Shown piece after piece: positions 2,561-14,064 of a stretch of DNA of 32,486 nt; the stretch's first letter is position 1; each line of letters starts with the position of its first letter. The position numbers were made by a program, and so were the translations under genes. The notes under the pieces were generated by a model, which saw only the letters and a list, made by a program, of their open reading frames with translations, was not told the origin of the DNA and did no database searches. Source of the stretch: Escherichia phage IMM-001; the sequence record MF630922.1. One strand, given 5' to 3'.

Positions 2561-2736
2561 AATTCAAGCAAAGTAACCCTAAGCTGCAAGCCAACCACTT
2601 CGATGGCTACTCAACATTCATTATTGCACAGGCTTGCGGAATGCGTGATGAACCTCAGGTTCACACCATCCACTTAACCGAGGAGCAGGCTAGAGAACTC
2701 GCTTATGAAATTCTTGAGCAATTGAATAAGATTTAA
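2557..2736 (+). CDS. hypothetical small protein (59 aa, below threshold)
   Basis: ATGA overlap with upstream stop; ends just before the RBS of the HNH gene. Confidence 0.35.
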   Translation: MKFKQSNPKLQANHFDGYSTFIIAQACGMRDEPQVHTIHLTEEQARELAYEILEQLNKI

Positions 2737-2745
2737 GGTGATAGA

Positions 2746-3111
2746 ATGAAATTAACAAAGTTACAAAGAGATGAACTAAAGTTTAAGCTAGGTGGATTCT
2801 GCGCATACTGCGGCTGCGAACTCGGTGATAAGTGGCATGCTGACCATATGAAGCCAGTAATCAGGTATGATGGTAAAATGGTGCACGATGAGCTTGATAA
2901 TATTTCGAACCTTGTCCCGGCGTGCCACGCTTGCAATCTGCATAAGCACTGCAATAGTGTGGAGGATTACCGGAGAATTATTGACGATGGTAGGCGGGAG
3001 TTTTTGGCATCCGGCAAGGGTAAGGCGCTCGTTCGCATGGGGCTGGTTGATATGAAGATGGATGATATTGTGTTCTGGTTCGAGAAGTTTGAGAAATTGA
3101 ATAAGATTTAA
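2746..3111 (+). CDS. HNH endonuclease (121 aa)
   Basis: Cys pairs CAYCGC and CHACNLHKHC with HADH...N...H spacing typical of HNH nucleases; RBS aaggtg. Confidence 0.8.
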   Translation: MKLTKLQRDELKFKLGGFCAYCGCELGDKWHADHMKPVIRYDGKMVHDELDNISNLVPACHACNLHKHCNSVEDYRRIIDDGRREFLASGKGKALVRMGLVDMKMDDIVFWFEKFEKLNKI

Positions 3112-3588
3112 CGCGTATAGAACGCGTTCTAACTAACAATAATTTAAATGAGGTGATTGCATAATCAAGGTCGTATACATCGGTGAGGATGATTATATGG
3201 CGCTTTTAAAGCACGGCGACGTCTTCTGTTCATGGACTGTTAGTAGTGATGGTAACTATTACATTATTCAAAATAAGAATGGAGAGGAAATTTACCTCTC
3301 GAAAGATGAGGTAGCACTTTACTAATGGATAACTACGAATCACCAAGCCAGTGGGCTAAGCGCATGATGGATGAGGCTAAGACTGGCGAAGAGTCAATGC
3401 AATACTTCGAGCTAATGAATCTATGGAAAGAGCGGGAGGATAAGAAAAATGCTTAACACGTGCTTTTTCCGAACTATCAGGAGTTTGTTGAGGATTTAAT
3501 TTACTTTCACGATAAATACGGCGACACGTTTGAGTGCGACGGTGATAACAACGAAGTTTTAGCAACTTTTGATAGAGGGATCGATGTA

Positions 3589-7696: not shown

Positions 7697-7718
7697 CCAT
7701 AAAAGCTATGTTAAACTA

Positions 7719-7742
7719 AGCCCCTAACGGGGCTTTTTTATT
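7719..7742 (+). terminator. Rho-independent terminator
   Basis: agcccc-taac-ggggct then T7. Confidence 0.7.
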
Positions 7743-7753
7743 GGAGCAAGAAA

Positions 7754-9025
7754 ATGGTAAAAGCAGATTCATATGCCACGCAGTTCCTCGGTGGGGCTAG
7801 TGATGGCAGCGAGATTTACGGTCACTTTGGCAACACCTACCTAACACCTCCTTTCGCTGATTCACTTTACGTATCCAACTCAATTGTTCGTCGCATTGTC
7901 GACACCATACCGGAGACTGCAATCGCAGCAGGTTTCCATATCGACGGCATTGATGACGAAGGTGAGTTCTGGTCCAGGTGGGATTACCTGAAGGTTAACG
8001 AGTCAATATCTGACGCGTGGTCATGGGCGAGATTATTTGGCGGCTCGGCAATTGTGGCTATCGTTAAGGATAATCGTGCGTTAACTAGTCCAGTACGTGA
8101 AGGCGCAGAACTTGAATCACTTCGAGTATACGAGCGAAGTCAGGTAAAGGTGCAAACGAAGGAGGAAAACCCTCGCAACGTGCGATTTGGTAAGCCGCTA
8201 ACGTACCGCATCACGCCTGAAGGCAGCACCATGTTTTATGACGTTCACTATTCCAGGGTTCACATCATGGATGGTGAGAAAATCCCCAGTTCATTGCGTC
8301 GCGGTAATGATGGGTGGGGTGCTAGCGTACTGACTCCTGACTTGCTGGAATCAATCAAGGATTATCAGACGTGCGAGAAGCTGGCAACTCAGTTATTGCG
8401 ACGTAAGCAACAGGCGGTTTGGAAGGCTAAAGGTCTGGCTGAATTGTGTGACGACGCTGAAGGTTTTGGCGCGGCCAGGTTGAGACTGGCTCAGGTTGAT
8501 GATAACTCTGGAGTTGGGCGTGCTATTGGTATCGATGCTGAGGCTGAAGAATACAGCGTTCTGAATTCGGATATTGGTGGTATTGATGGATTCCTCGATA
8601 AGAAGTTCGACAGGATTGTTGCTCTGAGCGGTATTCATGAAATCATACTAAAGGGCCGTAACGTTGGTGGTCTATCCTCCAGCCAAAACACAGCTCTGGA
8701 GACATTTCATAAGCTAATCGACCGCAAGCGCAATGAGGAGTTACTACCTGTCCTTGGGTTCTTAATCCCATTCATCACAACGGAGCAAGAATGGTCGGTT
8801 GAGTTTAATCCGCTAGCTCAGGAATCGAAGAAAGACCGCGCTGAAATACTGAAGAATAACGTTGACTCAATCTCAGCCCTTATCACTAACGGCGTAATGG
8901 ATACAGATGAAGCACGAGATACCTTGCGTGCATTAGCACCTGAGGTTAAGATTGGTGAAGGTTCAATTGTTACCGAGCAATCCGCTCAGGAAGATTTACC
9001 AAAAGAGGAGGTTGTAATTGAATAA
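7754..9025 (+). CDS. portal protein (423 aa)
   Basis: Size and position after terminase; 8-nt overlap with next gene. Confidence 0.7.
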   Translation: MVKADSYATQFLGGASDGSEIYGHFGNTYLTPPFADSLYVSNSIVRRIVDTIPETAIAAGFHIDGIDDEGEFWSRWDYLKVNESISDAWSWARLFGGSAIVAIVKDNRALTSPVREGAELESLRVYERSQVKVQTKEENPRNVRFGKPLTYRITPEGSTMFYDVHYSRVHIMDGEKIPSSLRRGNDGWGASVLTPDLLESIKDYQTCEKLATQLLRRKQQAVWKAKGLAELCDDAEGFGAARLRLAQVDDNSGVGRAIGIDAEAEEYSVLNSDIGGIDGFLDKKFDRIVALSGIHEIILKGRNVGGLSSSQNTALETFHKLIDRKRNEELLPVLGFLIPFITTEQEWSVEFNPLAQESKKDRAEILKNNVDSISALITNGVMDTDEARDTLRALAPEVKIGEGSIVTEQSAQEDLPKEEVVIE

Positions 9026-10124
9026 GAATCGCTTTGATACAGCATCATTCAAAGCCACTGTCGACGAGAATGGATTCCTCGTCGACACTCCAGTGGTGGC
9101 AAGGCTTGGCGTGCAGGTTTATTACATGGAGGATGGTTCTACAGTTCGCGAGTTCAGGCCAGCAGAGGAAGTATTCAAAGAGGAATCGCTAGCCAGTTAT
9201 CAGGGAAAGCCAATGACTCTGAACCACGTATTTGTAAACTCTGATAACGCCAAAGATGTAGTGGTTGGTTCGGTAACAGGCAAAGCCGAAGCTCTTGGCA
9301 GTACAGTTATTGCGCCAATTGTCGTTTACTCTCAACAGGCAATAGATGAAGCTCGCACTGGTAATGCTAAGGAATTATCAGTTGGGTACTCAGCAGTTCT
9401 TGACGAAACTCCAGGCTGGGGCGATCCGGCAACAGGTGAGTATATCCTCAGGAGTGACGCGAAGGAAAGTGATGTACCCCCTGACTGGCAAGAATTCGAT
9501 GCAATCCAGCGAGACATTAAGGTCAACCATCTGGCAATGGTATCTAGAGGCCGTGCAGGTGTGGCGAAATTGAATATGGACGGCCAGCAGGAAAACCCTT
9601 ATACTGACAACGTTGATTCTATTAAAGAGGATGTTAAAGAAATGGTTAAGATTAAACTGAATGGTACTCAGGAGTTCGAAATTGCTCCAGAAGTTGCCGC
9701 ACACATTGCAACTATTAAAAAAGACGCAGATGATGCTAAAGCTAAAGCCGACACCATTGAAGCTGAGCGTGATTCGCTGAAAGCTAAAGTTGATGCGATT
9801 CCTGCTGAAATTGAGAAAGCCGTTAAAGCCGCTAAAGCTGACGCCGAAGCACTTGCTGCTCTGGTTACTGTAGCCGCAGAGGTTGGCGTTAAGACTGACT
9901 GTCTGGATGCTAAAGGCATTAAAGTTGCATACGTTAAAGAAGTTTCTGGCCTTGATGTTGCCGATAAATCCGACGCATACATCGATGCAGCGTTCGACAT
10001 TGCCAAAGATTCTGATAAAATGGCTGAAGTTCGCAAAGCTACCGCAGCTTCCGACAAATCTGACAAGTCTGACGAACCTAAGAAATTAGACCCGCGCGCT
10101 CGTCTGGCTAAAATTAAAAAGTAA
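9018..10124 (+). CDS. head scaffold / maturation protein (368 aa), possibly protease-scaffold fusion
   Basis: C-terminal half is Ala/Lys/Asp/Glu-rich and helical like scaffolds; position between portal and capsid. Confidence 0.45.
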   Translation: MNKNRFDTASFKATVDENGFLVDTPVVARLGVQVYYMEDGSTVREFRPAEEVFKEESLASYQGKPMTLNHVFVNSDNAKDVVVGSVTGKAEALGSTVIAPIVVYSQQAIDEARTGNAKELSVGYSAVLDETPGWGDPATGEYILRSDAKESDVPPDWQEFDAIQRDIKVNHLAMVSRGRAGVAKLNMDGQQENPYTDNVDSIKEDVKEMVKIKLNGTQEFEIAPEVAAHIATIKKDADDAKAKADTIEAERDSLKAKVDAIPAEIEKAVKAAKADAEALAALVTVAAEVGVKTDCLDAKGIKVAYVKEVSGLDVADKSDAYIDAAFDIAKDSDKMAEVRKATAASDKSDKSDEPKKLDPRARLAKIKK

Positions 10125-10135
10125 GGAGATAGATA

Positions 10136-10609
10136 ATGGCAATTCGTTCTGTAGCACTGGCAGGTATGGTAGCTGATACCTCCCTGTATAATATCGATGG
10201 CGCTTGTGTAGTTGGTGGCTCTGCTGCAATTCCTGTTGGTACTGTTGTTGGTGTTACGTCCGCTCAGCCTGTTGATGGGCACAAGGTAGTAGCTGCAACT
10301 GGTATTACCGCCGCTAACGTTCTTGGTGTTGTTGTTCGATCTCATTACGAGACTCCAGACGGCACAGCTCGCGTAAATGAAGCGGTTAACGTAATGACTT
10401 CTGGTCGTATCTGGGTTCGCACAACTCTTGATGCCGCCCCTGCATTTGGCGCTCCGGTTCTTGTTTCTGCAACTGGTGTTGTTGAGGAGGCTGGTGCTGT
10501 AGCGACTGGCTGGACCTTCGCTGGTGGCTTCATCCCTAACACTGGCACTAAGCCGCAAGACCTTAGCGTAGATGGCGCTCTGGTTGAAGTTCAGGTTAAA
10601 CAGAAGTAA
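10136..10609 (+). CDS. putative capsid decoration/cement protein (157 aa)
   Basis: Small Gly/Ala/Val-rich protein between scaffold and major capsid; position-based. Confidence 0.3.
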   Translation: MAIRSVALAGMVADTSLYNIDGACVVGGSAAIPVGTVVGVTSAQPVDGHKVVAATGITAANVLGVVVRSHYETPDGTARVNEAVNVMTSGRIWVRTTLDAAPAFGAPVLVSATGVVEEAGAVATGWTFAGGFIPNTGTKPQDLSVDGALVEVQVKQK

Positions 10610-10631
10610 TAAATATAGCAGTGTAAATAAG

Positions 10632-10652
10632 CCTCCTTCGGGAGGTTTTTTT
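10632..10652 (+). terminator. Rho-independent terminator
   Basis: cctcc-ttcg-ggagg then T7. Confidence 0.7.
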
Positions 10653-10679
10653 GTAATCAAATGCTGCCTATGTTATATT
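10651..10679 (+). promoter_or_regulatory. Sigma70-like promoter (TTGTAA, 17 nt, TATATT)
   Basis: Hexamers at canonical spacing just after the terminator. Confidence 0.4.
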
Positions 10680-10698
10680 CAACTCTCATCTAAAAAAA

Positions 10699-10926
10699 AT
10701 GAGATTAAACATGGCTTACACCGAAGTTAAGGCTATTAGTGCAGATAGCGGTCGATTCAATACACTGCTTCAAGCCGCCATCGATGGTGGTTTTCAGCCA
10801 GTAAGTAAAATCACGGTAAATGGCTCACAGTCATATTCCATCGTCGTAGCAAAAGGCGCTGACAGTTCAATCACTGAAGCGAATGATCACCTCCACCAAT
10901 ATGCGCAAGCTGTTCGAAGCTGTTGA
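10699..10926 (+). CDS. hypothetical protein (75 aa)
   Basis: ORF in terminator/promoter-bounded cassette; overlaps next ORF in +1 frame. Confidence 0.35.
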   Translation: MRLNMAYTEVKAISADSGRFNTLLQAAIDGGFQPVSKITVNGSQSYSIVVAKGADSSITEANDHLHQYAQAVRSC

Positions 10927-11398
10927 AGCTGCGTCTGATGATGGCTTCACAATTGATACGTCAAGCCTGAGTCTATCATCAGGTCAGTTCTTTGCTTATG
11001 CATATAAAGGCAGTGCTGGTGGTTCTGTTTCTGTGGCGTGGGGAGACGTAACTGGCAAACCAACCACCTTTGCGCCAATTGTCGGCACTGGTGCGACCCA
11101 AGCAATGGCTGGCAATAAGACGCTGGCTAACATTGGTGGCGTAGTTCCCTTGTCTGGCCTTCCTATTGCAAGCACCACTGCCGCTGGCATTATCCAGATT
11201 GGCACTGGCGCAACTAACGCAATGCCGGGTAACAAGTTTGTTGCTGGCGCGGCGGTTGCTAACGTTACTGCTCAGACCGTGACTGGTGCTGATGCCGAAG
11301 CGGTGGCAACCTCAGCTACCACAGCTGTTAACGAAGTAGCCACCAAGTTAAACGACCTTCTCGCACAGCTGCGAGTCGCCAAGATCATCGCGGGCTAA
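10883..11398 (+). CDS. Gly/Ala/Thr-rich repeat protein (171 aa), possible fibre/decoration protein
   Basis: Internal direct repeat GTGATQAMAGNK / GTGATNAMPGNK and helical C-terminus; start uncertain (10883 or 10901). Confidence 0.35.
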   Translation: MITSTNMRKLFEAVEAASDDGFTIDTSSLSLSSGQFFAYAYKGSAGGSVSVAWGDVTGKPTTFAPIVGTGATQAMAGNKTLANIGGVVPLSGLPIASTTAAGIIQIGTGATNAMPGNKFVAGAAVANVTAQTVTGADAEAVATSATTAVNEVATKLNDLLAQLRVAKIIAG

Positions 11399-11424
11399 CG
11401 CCAAGCTGGCGGATAACTCACCTG

Positions 11425-11452
11425 TTGATTTGTGGTCGCCATGCTGTATAAT
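11425..11452 (+). promoter_or_regulatory. Sigma70-like promoter (TTGATT, 16 nt, TATAAT) upstream of major capsid gene
   Basis: Near-consensus hexamers. Confidence 0.55.
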
Positions 11453-11490
11453 TGACTCGTACATACATAACTGAAAAGGAATAAACAAGA

Positions 11491-12432
11491 ATGGCCATTA
11501 AATTTGATGCAGAACAAGCAAAAATCACCGCTCACCTTGAGCAAATGGGTGTAGATAAGGCTGATGCTGCTGGTATCTGGACCGTTAAGCAGTTGACCGC
11601 GAATCTGGCGCGCGCTTACGAAGCAGAGTATTCGGAAAACTCCGTAGTTAATATCTTCCCTGTAACTAACGAAATCCCAAGTCACGCAAAGTATTTTGAG
11701 TATCCTGAGTTTGACGGAGCAGCAATTGCACAGATTATCGCTGAATACTCTGATGACCTGCCGCTGGTTGATGCGTTCATGACCGAGAAACAAGGTAAAG
11801 TGTTCCGCTTCGGTAACGCATTCCTGATCTCCATCGACGAAATCAAAGCAGGTGCAGCAACTGGTCAGTCACTGTCATCTCGCAAACAGGCTCTGGCATT
11901 CGAAGCGCACGATAACCTGCTTGATAAACTTGTATGGTCTGGCTCTGCACCGCACGGCATTCCTAGCGTATTCAATGCGCCGAACGTTAACCAGGTTGTT
12001 GCTGGTACTTGGAACTCCGCGGCTGCTGCTATGACTGACATTACCGCTCTTATCGATGCTATCGAAACAGCGACCAATGGCGCTCACACCGCGACTGATA
12101 TCCTGCTTCCAGCTTCCGCTCGCCGCCTGATGCAAGAATTGGTGCCGAATACCTCTATCAGCTACGCGCAGTTGTTTGCAACCAATAACTCCGGCATCAC
12201 TTTGCGCTATCTGCAATTCCTGGACAACTACGACGGCGCAAACGGCAAAGCTGCACTGGCATTTGAAAAAAATCCGTTAAATCTTAGTATTGAGATTCCA
12301 GAAGTTACTAACGTACTTCCGGGCCAACCGAAGGATTTACATTTCAAATACCCGGTGACTTCAAAGGCTACAGGCTTGATTTTATATAGGCCGCTAACTG
12401 TTTCCGTACTGAAAGGCATTACCTACGCCTAA
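11491..12432 (+). CDS. major capsid protein (313 aa)
   Basis: Size, position, own promoter and terminator; not motif-verified. Confidence 0.6.
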   Translation: MAIKFDAEQAKITAHLEQMGVDKADAAGIWTVKQLTANLARAYEAEYSENSVVNIFPVTNEIPSHAKYFEYPEFDGAAIAQIIAEYSDDLPLVDAFMTEKQGKVFRFGNAFLISIDEIKAGAATGQSLSSRKQALAFEAHDNLLDKLVWSGSAPHGIPSVFNAPNVNQVVAGTWNSAAAAMTDITALIDAIETATNGAHTATDILLPASARRLMQELVPNTSISYAQLFATNNSGITLRYLQFLDNYDGANGKAALAFEKNPLNLSIEIPEVTNVLPGQPKDLHFKYPVTSKATGLILYRPLTVSVLKGITYA

Positions 12433-12452
12433 TGGCACTAAATGACAAAACA

Positions 12453-12481
12453 ATACCACCGAAAGGTGGTATTTTTGTTTT
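12453..12481 (+). terminator. Rho-independent terminator
   Basis: ataccacc-gaaa-ggtggtat then T-rich run. Confidence 0.75.
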
Positions 12482-12507
12482 AACACAACGCTAATAGTGG
12501 TGCGGTT

Positions 12508-12981
12508 ATGGAATTTTCAGATTATATAGTTTACGACAATGGGAAGTTACGCTGGAAGAAGAAGACAGGGAGGTCAACCCAGATAGGCAAGGAGATAGGA
12601 ATAAATTCAGGGAGCGGATACCTTACATTCAAGTTTTATGGTAAAAGATACAAAGTCCACAGGGTTGTGTGGATGATAATGGTTGGGCCAATACCTGATG
12701 GTATGGAAACTGATCACATAAATCATGTTCGAGACGATAATAGAATTGAGAATCTCAGGCTTGTATCAAGGATTGAGAACATGAAGAACAAAAGCGTTTA
12801 CAGAAGCAACTCTTCCGGATTTTGCGGGGTTAGTGTCAAAAGCAGCGGCATGTACCACGCCTACATACAGTTTAATGGGAAGCAAGTAAACCTTGGTTTA
12901 TTTAAGGAAAAGCAGGATGCAGTAACGGCAAGATTGGAGGCAGAAATGGTTTATGGATTTCATGATAATCATGGGTTATAA
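12508..12981 (+). CDS. HNH homing-type endonuclease (157 aa)
   Basis: ETDHINHVRDDNRIENLRLVSRIENMKNK motif; free-standing between capsid and neck genes. Confidence 0.8.
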   Translation: MEFSDYIVYDNGKLRWKKKTGRSTQIGKEIGINSGSGYLTFKFYGKRYKVHRVVWMIMVGPIPDGMETDHINHVRDDNRIENLRLVSRIENMKNKSVYRSNSSGFCGVSVKSSGMYHAYIQFNGKQVNLGLFKEKQDAVTARLEAEMVYGFHDNHGL

Positions 12982-13013
12982 TCAACCATCAATTAATAAA
13001 AGTGGAGCAACAA

Positions 13014-13259
13014 ATGATTCGTTTAGAACACACTGGCGCGTGCATGATTACCTTTCGTGGTGTGAATTATATGCCAGGTGAATTCATCGAGGTCGAGGAA
13101 ATTAACGCTGGACTTAAGAGCTTGATTGCAGAAGGCCGCTTGCAGATTGATGGCGACACCAAAGCAACTAAAGAAATTGCCGCAGAGGTTAAAGCAAAGT
13201 CTAAGCGCAAAGAACCGAAGACCATTGACGAAGCTCAGACTGGTCAGGAATATAAATAA
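13014..13259 (+). CDS. hypothetical protein (81 aa)
   Basis: ATG 13014 with RBS agtggag; ORF-track start 13002 is GTG. Confidence 0.4.
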   Translation: MIRLEHTGACMITFRGVNYMPGEFIEVEEINAGLKSLIAEGRLQIDGDTKATKEIAAEVKAKSKRKEPKTIDEAQTGQEYK

Positions 13260-13264
13260 CCAAA

Positions 13265-13287
13265 TGGGCGCTTCGGCGTCCGTTTTT
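13265..13287 (+). terminator. Rho-independent terminator
   Basis: gggcgc-ttcg-gcgtcc (one G-U) then T5. Confidence 0.55.
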
Positions 13288-13300
13288 GCATGGGGGTTTT

Positions 13301-13696
13301 ATGAACGAACAAGCATTGGCATTTATGAGATCACTGGTTCCAGCTTTGCGTAACGTTCCAGATGAAACGCTGGACGCATGGCTTGAACTGGCTAAACTTT
13401 ACATCTGCGCTAGTAAGTTTGGTGACGATGCTTACAAGGCGCTGGCGTTATACACTCTGCACATTGCCTTTCTTGATGGCGCGCTTAAGCAGAATGGGTC
13501 GCTCGATGATTATGGGAAGAAAATTGCAAGTTACTCCCTGAGCGGTGAATACTCTATCAGGCATGAATCCACCTCGCAAACACAATCATCAATGACAGCC
13601 ACCCCGTGGGGTAGGCTTTACTGGAACCTCCTGCGTAAGAAAGGTGGCGGTTTTGGCTTTATTACGTCCGCTGGGCGTGGGTGCGGTTGCCGATGA
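13301..13696 (+). CDS. putative head-tail connector protein (131 aa)
   Basis: Position and size; ATG 13301 chosen over TTG 13286. Confidence 0.35.
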   Translation: MNEQALAFMRSLVPALRNVPDETLDAWLELAKLYICASKFGDDAYKALALYTLHIAFLDGALKQNGSLDDYGKKIASYSLSGEYSIRHESTSQTQSSMTATPWGRLYWNLLRKKGGGFGFITSAGRGCGCR

Positions 13697-14064
13697 ATTA
13701 CTCCCAAGTAGAATCATTAATGCGCACGGGCATCAATATCTTTAGTGATGGCGATGGTACGTTTACCATGGAAACTGGTAAAGGCGGTGTTGAAATTGTT
13801 GACGGCGTTGAAGTTCCCGTGGCTGGCGGAACTGCGTTAATTAAGGGGCTGGTGAGGGAGATTAAAACCAGGGATATTGATGGTGAGTATATTCAATTTG
13901 GTGACAAGCGTGGAATTTTCACTTCGGAAGTCCCAATCTTGCAGGGCTACAGGATTATAGTGGACGATGAAACTTACACTGTAGTCGACCCAAGGCCAGT
14001 TAAACCAACTGGCACAGTGGTCGCTTACAGGCCAATTCTAAGAAGGATTGCTACCTATGGCTAG
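13681..14064 (+). CDS. putative head-tail adaptor/neck protein (127 aa)
   Basis: Overlapping coupled ORF in neck region. Confidence 0.35.
   Translation: MRLPMNYSQVESLMRTGINIFSDGDGTFTMETGKGGVEIVDGVEVPVAGGTALIKGLVREIKTRDIDGEYIQFGDKRGIFTSEVPILQGYRIIVDDETYTVVDPRPVKPTGTVVAYRPILRRIATYG

Follow-up and report, generated by a model that had tools for sequence, protein, structure and literature searches.

The window we analysed is a stretch of 32,486 nucleotides (nt) from Escherichia phage IMM-001 (sequence record MF630922.1), and it represents the head–tail module of a T1/Rtp-like siphophage of the Drexlerviridae. Between its cement (decoration) gene and its major capsid gene lie two overlapping open reading frames (ORFs), ORF1 of 75 amino acids (aa; 10699-10926) and ORF2 of 171 aa (10883-11398), both of which carry the label 'hypothetical protein' in GenBank (ATI17085.1 and ATI17086.1). 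A preliminary description of this DNA had listed both ORFs and had noticed that the second begins in the +1 frame inside the first without a clear ribosome-binding site (RBS). We confirmed these observations: (10883-10699) mod 3 equals 1, the two ORFs overlap by 44 nt, and there was no Shine-Dalgarno (SD) sequence before either ATG 10883 or ATG 10901. The same description had proposed that the product may be a head fibre, or that the two ORFs could be joined by frameshifting. We found that the two ORFs are halves of one gene, split in IMM-001 by a 2-bp deletion. The features that bear on this are as follows.

10692..10710, plus strand: degraded RBS, reading AAAAAAAATGAGATTAAAC (alignments A1 and A4; DTL sequence)
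10711..10926, plus strand: ORF1, 5' part of the ancestral gene (phrog_1954 positions 1-55, E 1.5e-11)
Between 10883 and 10884, plus strand: site of the 2-bp deletion (alignments A1 and A4; SRR25011036)
10883..11398, plus strand: ORF2, the 3' fragment, 171 aa, ATI17086.1 (phrog_1954 positions 55-198, E 5e-37)

One gene split by a 2-bp deletion

Both ORFs matched a single profile, PHROG 1954 ('virion structural protein', 199 positions), and jointly they cover its positions 1-198; the full-length profile is therefore represented at this locus, as a disrupted copy and not as a single uninterrupted ORF. At the same place there is an uninterrupted 229-aa ORF in phages phiEB49 (gp53, YP_009018667.1), BEK6 (QGH76853.1, labelled 'tail fiber protein'), 2725-N35 and DTL, and a 190-aa ORF in phiA2-1, and a large protein collection held ~42 further homologue clusters of 190-234 aa, all of them continuous. 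The phiEB49 and BEK6 genes are full-length homologues of the window gene and have the gene order in common with it (cement gene, terminator, promoter, gene, promoter, capsid gene), as well as the flanking regulatory sequences; they are intact, whereas the window copy is split and its SD sequence is degraded. With GG re-inserted, the IMM-001 sequence has an ORF of 229 aa, which shows 90% identity to phiEB49 gp53. The ratio of nonsynonymous to synonymous substitution rates (dN/dS) was 0.07-0.16 over all pairs, and the restored IMM-001 gene compared with intact relatives gave ~0.1, the same as among the intact relatives, so the gene family is clearly under purifying selection as one ORF. That the two ORFs belong together, as had been suspected, is thus upheld by the shared PHROG profile and by the single ORF in relatives; that they are joined by frameshifting is not, given the 2-bp deletion and the lack of recoding signals described below.

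We found no experimental characterisation of any PHROG 1954 member in searchable papers, and a scan of IMG/VR with a degenerate pattern across the deletion site returned only phiEB49 itself and no further frameshifted or intact copies.

The start of ORF1 listed above, ATG 10699, is also the one used by GenBank for ATI17085.1; the alignments place the ancestral start at ATG 10711. Codons 1-57 of ORF1 (to 10881) are homologous to the relatives and encode the first N-terminal domain (residues 5-48). The deletion junction lies within the next codon, AAT 10882-10884; this codon and the 13 that follow it encode a 14-residue out-of-frame tail, NDHLHQYAQAVRSC, which ends at the stop codon TGA 10924-10926. 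ORF2 encodes the remainder, i.e., the second N-terminal domain (to ~11008), a Gly-rich repeat region and a C-terminal helix.

Across the lesion the IMM-001 record reads GCGAATGATC, and the intact counterpart in relatives reads GCGAAGGTGATC (…E A K V I…); the window has GCGAA^TGATC, and the missing bases are those bracketed in GCGAA[GG]TGATC. In the four- and five-phage alignments A1 and A4, this GG is missing from the window alone and is present in all intact relatives. The deletion affects codon 58, which coincides precisely with the linker joining one N-terminal domain to the other. A second change lies just upstream. The sequence before the ATG in relatives is AAGGAG(A/C)TTAA(AC/TT), the AAGGAG being the RBS in all five intact relatives inspected (phiA2-1 has AAGGGT), and in IMM-001 AAGGAG has become AAAATGAG. 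The mutation that destroyed the RBS also created the spurious in-frame ATG 10699.

IMM-001 was sequenced on an Illumina HiSeq as ~3.9 million 50-nt single-end reads and assembled with CLC at thousands-fold depth (PMC6301781). An independent Logan assembly, SRR25011036, consists of a 32,907-bp contig with different ends that is 99.66% identical to IMM-001 over 6.2 kb, with 20 substitutions and one indel over window positions 7712-13926. Both the deletion and the altered RBS are found unchanged in SRR25011036. Since this independent assembly has the deletion too, it is genuine and has been inherited within a small lineage.

The IMM-001 record has 32.5 kb compared with 44-48 kb in relatives, and because it is shorter than their genomes the published genome appears to be incomplete. 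The Logan contig, at 32.9 kb, is shifted by ~0.9 kb.

We also noted that in the RefSeq entry of Escherichia phage DTL (NC_047893.1) the intact 229-aa ORF, at 2676-3365 of the locus stretch we extracted, is annotated only over its last 58 codons (3189-3365 of that stretch), as 'virion structural protein'. Ahead of this gene DTL has an extra, unannotated 161-aa ORF (2103-2588 of the extracted stretch) with its own upstream terminator. We considered this ORF as a homologue of the N-terminal domains and rejected it, the match being too weak (hhalign E 0.0066, hhalign probability 6%).

The restored protein and its weak likeness to head fibres

We based an AlphaFold2 monomer model of the restored protein on an alignment of 60 sequences; its mean predicted local distance difference test score (pLDDT) was 73. 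The model predicts tandem beta-alpha-beta-beta domains at residues 5-48 and 56-100 (pLDDT 79-93), followed by a Gly-rich region at residues 106-190 (pLDDT 44-65), which holds 39-residue repeats and shows no helix-turn-helix repeats in the monomer model, and by a C-terminal helix. The repeats and the helix lie in ORF2 at the following positions.

11084..11236, plus strand: two copies of a GTGAxxAMxGNK motif, one 39-codon period apart (DNA repeat)
11288..11377, plus strand: C-terminal alpha-helix, residues 194-223, ending …LNDLLAQLRVAKIIAG (AlphaFold2, pLDDT ~86-93)

The direct repeat that had been reported in the second ORF is real at the DNA level, with units at 11084-11119 and 11201-11236 that are each 36 nt long, 75% identical and spaced by 117 nt (39 codons). 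Members of the family differ in how many copies they have of the 39-residue unit (…GTGAxxAMxGNKTLANIGGVVPxSGLPxASTxAAGxIQI…), and there are variants of 190, 208, 229, 234 and 244-249 aa; those of 190 aa are without one unit, seen as a 117-nt gap in phiA2-1. Some family members join these repeats to unrelated N-terminal domains. Such modularity of repeats and domains is typical of fibre proteins.

Database comparisons gave a graded picture. Pfam had no family for ORF1, ORF2 or the restored protein, and no match to PF11133 was found at E-values up to 1. Structure prediction, which the preliminary description had named as a check, gave confident N-terminal domains and a confident C-terminal helix, but a Foldseek search of the N-terminal domains against the PDB returned nothing significant, the best matches (E 0.2) being to ACT-like or ferredoxin-like folds. 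A profile search against PDB sequences yielded five weak matches, four of them to fibres (three head or capsid fibres and one tail fibre), namely 3QC7 (E 0.028, over two stretches), 7QOF (E 0.063), the tail fibre gp9 23sh (E 0.069) and 6QVK (E 1.3); the fifth was to the decoration protein B2 Dec gp45 (9d82, E 0.66). Two of the 60 family members matched PF11133 Phage_head_fibr (best E 0.0018), and distant members matched phrog_5711 'head fiber protein' (E 6e-19 and 1.6e-7) together with phrog_1954 over the full length. The label 'Head fiber protein triple repeating helix-turn-helix' in nr belongs to the 136-aa fragment of the distant homologue in assembly SRR7892456.

Among the solved structures, the phi29 head fibre gp8.5 (3QC7, 6QVK; PF11133) is short, with an N-terminal capsid-binding part and a repetitive stalk, an arrangement that the window protein appears to have as well. 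In the profile alignment, 'lPxAtttaxG' repeats of the two proteins match weakly, and the C-terminal motif of gp8.5, …LNSLITVLKNAGIIS, aligns with that of the window protein in the form …LNxLxxxLxxAGII, although the similarity is sub-threshold. Unlike these parts, the N-terminal domains of the two are unrelated by Foldseek, and the helix-turn-helix supercoil of gp8.5 is not predicted for the window protein, the repeats of which have pLDDT below 60. The phi29 fibre is dispensable. In the head fibres gp21/gp29 of PhiCrAss001 (7QOF), the C-terminal helix motif also aligns, …VVTKVNAILSALKVADIM against …VATKLNDLLAQLRVAKII; this likeness extends over ~45 residues only. Beyond it the proteins differ, as do the phage groups.

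A different kind of relationship was seen with Escherichia phage ES, which has in the same slot, behind the same terminator, a gene for a 486-aa collagen-like protein (WNO47591.1, OR466728.1 6391-7851; phrog_5073 'tail fiber protein'). The first ~100 residues of the ES protein could be aligned by BLASTP (E 2e-5) and by hhalign (E 0.0012, probability 19%) to both N-terminal domains encoded at the window locus, and ORF1 weakly matches phrog_22681, a profile that covers the ES N-terminus. The distal part of the ES protein is entirely different: it is made up of long collagen repeats of the GXY type, with a C-terminal domain that is globular. This suggests that the slot may hold interchangeable fibres on a shared, putative capsid-anchoring module.

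We found no virion proteomics or structure for this protein in the literature; the IMM-001 paper (PMC6301781) is silent on the gene, and a proteomics paper on a T1-like phage lists seven other structural proteins. Taken with the architecture and the position of the gene, the weak similarities make a head fibre the best-supported functional reading of the intact product, so that the suggestion made in the preliminary description keeps its place as the best available label, on remote similarity, gene position and architecture only. Its interpretation is thus partly supported: one gene, and probably a head fibre.

The slot between the cement and capsid genes

The genes and regulatory elements around the split gene are listed here in order of position.

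7754-9025: portal gene
9018-10124: protease/scaffold gene
10136-10609: cement/decoration gene (PF22758 Phage_cement, E 1e-26)
10629..10655, plus strand: intrinsic terminator, AAGCCTCCTTCGGGAGGTTT followed by a T-run (8-pair stem, fold energy, relatives)
10651..10679, plus strand: promoter-like site P1, TTGTAA, 17-nt spacer, TG-extended TATATT (9/12 match, conservation)
11425..11452, plus strand: promoter-like site P2, TTGATT-16-TATAAT, 5' of the major capsid gene (10/12 match)
11491-12432: major capsid gene (PF09950)
12508-12981: HNH endonuclease gene, 157 aa (PF13392)

The preliminary description had drawn the two ORFs as a unit bounded by a terminator and a promoter of its own. Both elements are present, but the terminator was wrongly attributed. 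Its stem (10629-10648) has 8 pairs, 4 of them GC, and a TTCG loop, and is followed by a run of seven T to ~10655; it folds at -12.8 kcal/mol (z = -4.2), and none of 200 shuffled sequences was equally stable. The same hairpin trails the cement gene in OzMSK, which has no cassette, and in ES and DTL, and because it is thus also found in relatives without the cassette, the terminator at 10629-10655 is a property of the upstream cement/decoration gene and not of the cassette. No terminator was found downstream of ORF2 between 11398 and 11491.

The 9/12 match of P1 is by itself at about chance level, with 9 such sites in the region against 5.7 expected; both of its hexamers are invariant among the carriers of the gene in alignments A1 and A4. 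We regard P1 as a putative promoter of the accessory gene, on the conservation of this promoter-like sequence. P2 is kept in all relatives, the cassette-less OzMSK included, and marks the right border of the cassette, so that the insert consists of P1 (10651-10679) and the gene and is followed by the conserved P2 and the capsid leader. As in a moron-type cassette its presence is sporadic; a downstream terminator of its own is lacking, and the insert fits the moron definition only in part. A foreign base composition was not seen, the GC content being 0.51 in the cassette and 0.51 in the cement gene.

Carriers of the gene are few. It was found in only 5 distinct phages among 50,697 records. The flanking genes matched 96 records, of which just 6 reach a query coverage of 80% or more; most of the others align as two pieces without the cassette. 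In OzMSK the slot is empty, the terminator being followed directly by the capsid promoter. The synteny comparison that the preliminary description had named as another check therefore showed that the slot position is common to the carriers and that the cassette is not in all relatives, most of which have an empty slot.

Just 3' of the capsid gene, behind a bidirectional terminator (12452-12473), lies the HNH gene. It has an equal place in phiEB49 and is absent from BEK6, phiA2-1, 2725-N35 and DTL; it is probably a mobile homing-endonuclease insertion.

Probable decay of the gene and alternative readings

Further inactivated copies were found elsewhere. In SRR25011036 itself, ORF2 has a nonsense change, GGA to TGA, at window position 11042, in the nearly invariant AWGDVTGKP motif, which puts a stop 54 codons into the ORF. 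Its three further differences in ORF2 are all nonsynonymous (L31P, A82D and E151A), with no synonymous one, while the other 16 substitutions in the 6.2 kb comprise 8 synonymous and 8 nonsynonymous changes. The Drexlerviridae contig SRR24099959 has a homologue with GAA changed to TAA at codon 5 and another TAA before the C-terminal helix, and its SD sequence has gone from AAGGAG to AATGAG, the same G-to-T change as in IMM-001; an SD change of AGGAG to ATGAG thus accompanies the lesions in both Drexlerviridae cases. The SRR24099959 and IMM-001 sequences are otherwise not especially close. In SRR7892456, a distant 209-aa homologue has lost 13 bp between direct repeats of 7 bp (ACAGGTG) and is thereby split into pieces of 45 aa and 136 aa; the gene is intact in two other samples. 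This homologue belongs to a different phage group, in which it lies downstream of an E217_gp27-like connector gene. Besides IMM-001, homologues have therefore been inactivated independently at least twice. The gene is likely to be dispensable, and the IMM-001 copy has probably lost its function.

Most probably, the gene at the IMM-001 locus codes for a decoration fibre that the phage can do without, was frameshifted recently, is poorly translated and is decaying. On this account the region 10651-11398 is a single accessory gene with a putative promoter of its own, placed between the terminator of the cement gene and the capsid promoter. Its intact product of ~229 aa would comprise two N-terminal domains acting as a capsid anchor, the Gly-rich repeats of 39 residues and, at the C-terminus, a helix of the kind that ends the phi29 and crAss001 head fibres, and it would be a trimeric head fibre. 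The heritable 2-bp deletion at codon 58 has left ORF1, with domain 1 and 14 nonsense residues, and ORF2, with the rest. With the gene split and its SD sequence degraded, IMM-001 most likely makes no full-length protein, and the gene would be decaying.

Several points weigh against this account. The similarity to solved head fibres is in every case below significance thresholds, and a location on the capsid is suggested by where the gene lies, flanked by the genes for the cement and capsid proteins, and by its PHROG and nr labels. The nonsynonymous excess in ORF2 relative to the sister genome is suggestive but falls short of significance (one-sided P = 0.10). Moreover, G>T or C>A changes account for 8 of the 20 substitutions between the two genomes, with transitions and transversions in a 1:1 ratio, so the differences may include errors from oxidative damage, low coverage or the library in one data set, and the stop at 11042 is perhaps an artefact of SRR25011036; the inference from this stop is weakened because a G>T/C>A pattern can come from library damage. 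Relaxed selection was not detected either, as dN/dS is not raised in the restored IMM-001 gene compared with relatives, and therefore either the lesion is recent or the halves are still constrained. We take the IMM-001 lesion to be recent, and note that ORF1 or ORF2 may have kept a residual function.

Such a function would be retained if the locus were a working split gene, in which ORF2 is translated alone from ATG 10883 or 10901 by re-initiation after the ORF1 stop and makes a fibre anchored by a single domain, ORF1 being a free domain 1. The break lies at the linker between two autonomously folded domains, so both fragments could fold; the ORF2 starts lie 23 and 41 nt upstream of the ORF1 stop, an overlap compatible with termination-reinitiation; and the unraised dN/dS of the restored gene speaks for it too. 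Against this, neither ATG has an SD sequence, and with the upstream SD degraded few ribosomes would arrive; the sister genome has the early stop in ORF2 and only amino-acid-changing differences there; and the two domains are fused in all ~42 intact homologue clusters. We regard this arrangement as unlikely.

It is more doubtful still that the repeated inactivation has been selected and is not neutral, or that the split products work as a two-piece fibre. Three of the four lesions lie in the N-terminal anchor part, the exception being the second TAA of SRR24099959, just before the C-terminal helix. If it were true, fibre loss might be selected as, e.g., an escape from a host defence or a receptor-like trap that recognises the fibre, or alternatively as an adaptation to a host surface such as that of CS7-fimbriated enterotoxigenic Escherichia coli.

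Programmed +1 (or -2) frameshifting, or transcriptional slippage, that joins ORF1 and ORF2 into the full-length protein is very improbable, and programmed recoding is not supported by our analysis. The +1-frame overlap of two ORFs that jointly rebuild a conserved protein is what would be expected of it, as at the +1 site of prfB/RF2 and the -1 site of the phage tail chaperones G/GT, where overlapping ORFs in different frames likewise make up one longer protein. Unlike those sites, the window has no slippery sequence, stimulator or conserved arrangement, and its split is a recent deletion. We scanned 10846-10926 codon by codon for +1 shifts; a shift could occur only within 77 nt, an interval that opens at 10850, where the ORF2 frame has just passed its TAG (10847-10849), and closes with the ORF1 stop (10924-10926). 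The only re-pairing codon in this interval is AAA_G at 10852, which would let tRNA-Lys re-pair in +1; it is followed by the common codon GGC and has no adjacent stop, rare codon or SD-like stimulator, leaving no usable slippery site, and a shift there would swap out ten conserved residues. The context of the ORF1 stop, UGU_UGA_A, allows no re-pairing, and transcriptional slippage is excluded because no homopolymer in the interval exceeds 4 nt. A hairpin with an 11-bp stem (10934-10984, z -2.3) does lie inside the coding region 8 nt after the ORF1 stop, but a consensus fold of seven sequences gave -6 kcal/mol and no compensatory pairs, and it is probably fortuitous. The two-frame arrangement was found in no relative, all the intact ones being in frame and the shift occurring only in the two assemblies of the IMM-001 lineage; in addition, the gene's own RBS is degraded, and in the sister genome ORF2 is interrupted by a stop further downstream. 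On the codon scan, the alignments of relatives and the unconserved structure we rejected these mechanisms.

That the real phage gene is intact and the 2-bp gap is a sequencing or assembly error is hardly credible, and was rejected, for although the record is an incomplete draft from short single-end reads, Illumina sequencing at such depth rarely gives a 2-bp deletion outside homopolymers, the other large genes of the window are intact, and SRR25011036 shares the deletion and RBS while differing elsewhere and in its contig ends.

For annotation, our preferred reading of a decaying fibre gene means that ATI17085.1 and ATI17086.1 should be treated as one disrupted gene (a pseudogene) homologous to phiEB49 gp53, and neither as two hypothetical proteins nor as a recoding site. 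For the T1/Rtp-like phages, the slot between the cement and capsid genes is a place for interchangeable fibre-like genes (Gly-rich or collagen-like) that are often absent or broken and that appear to share an N-terminal two-domain module. If their products are capsid-anchored head fibres, the slot would offer a simple natural model of the way in which decoration fibres bind HK97-fold capsids, and it might be engineered as a display site.

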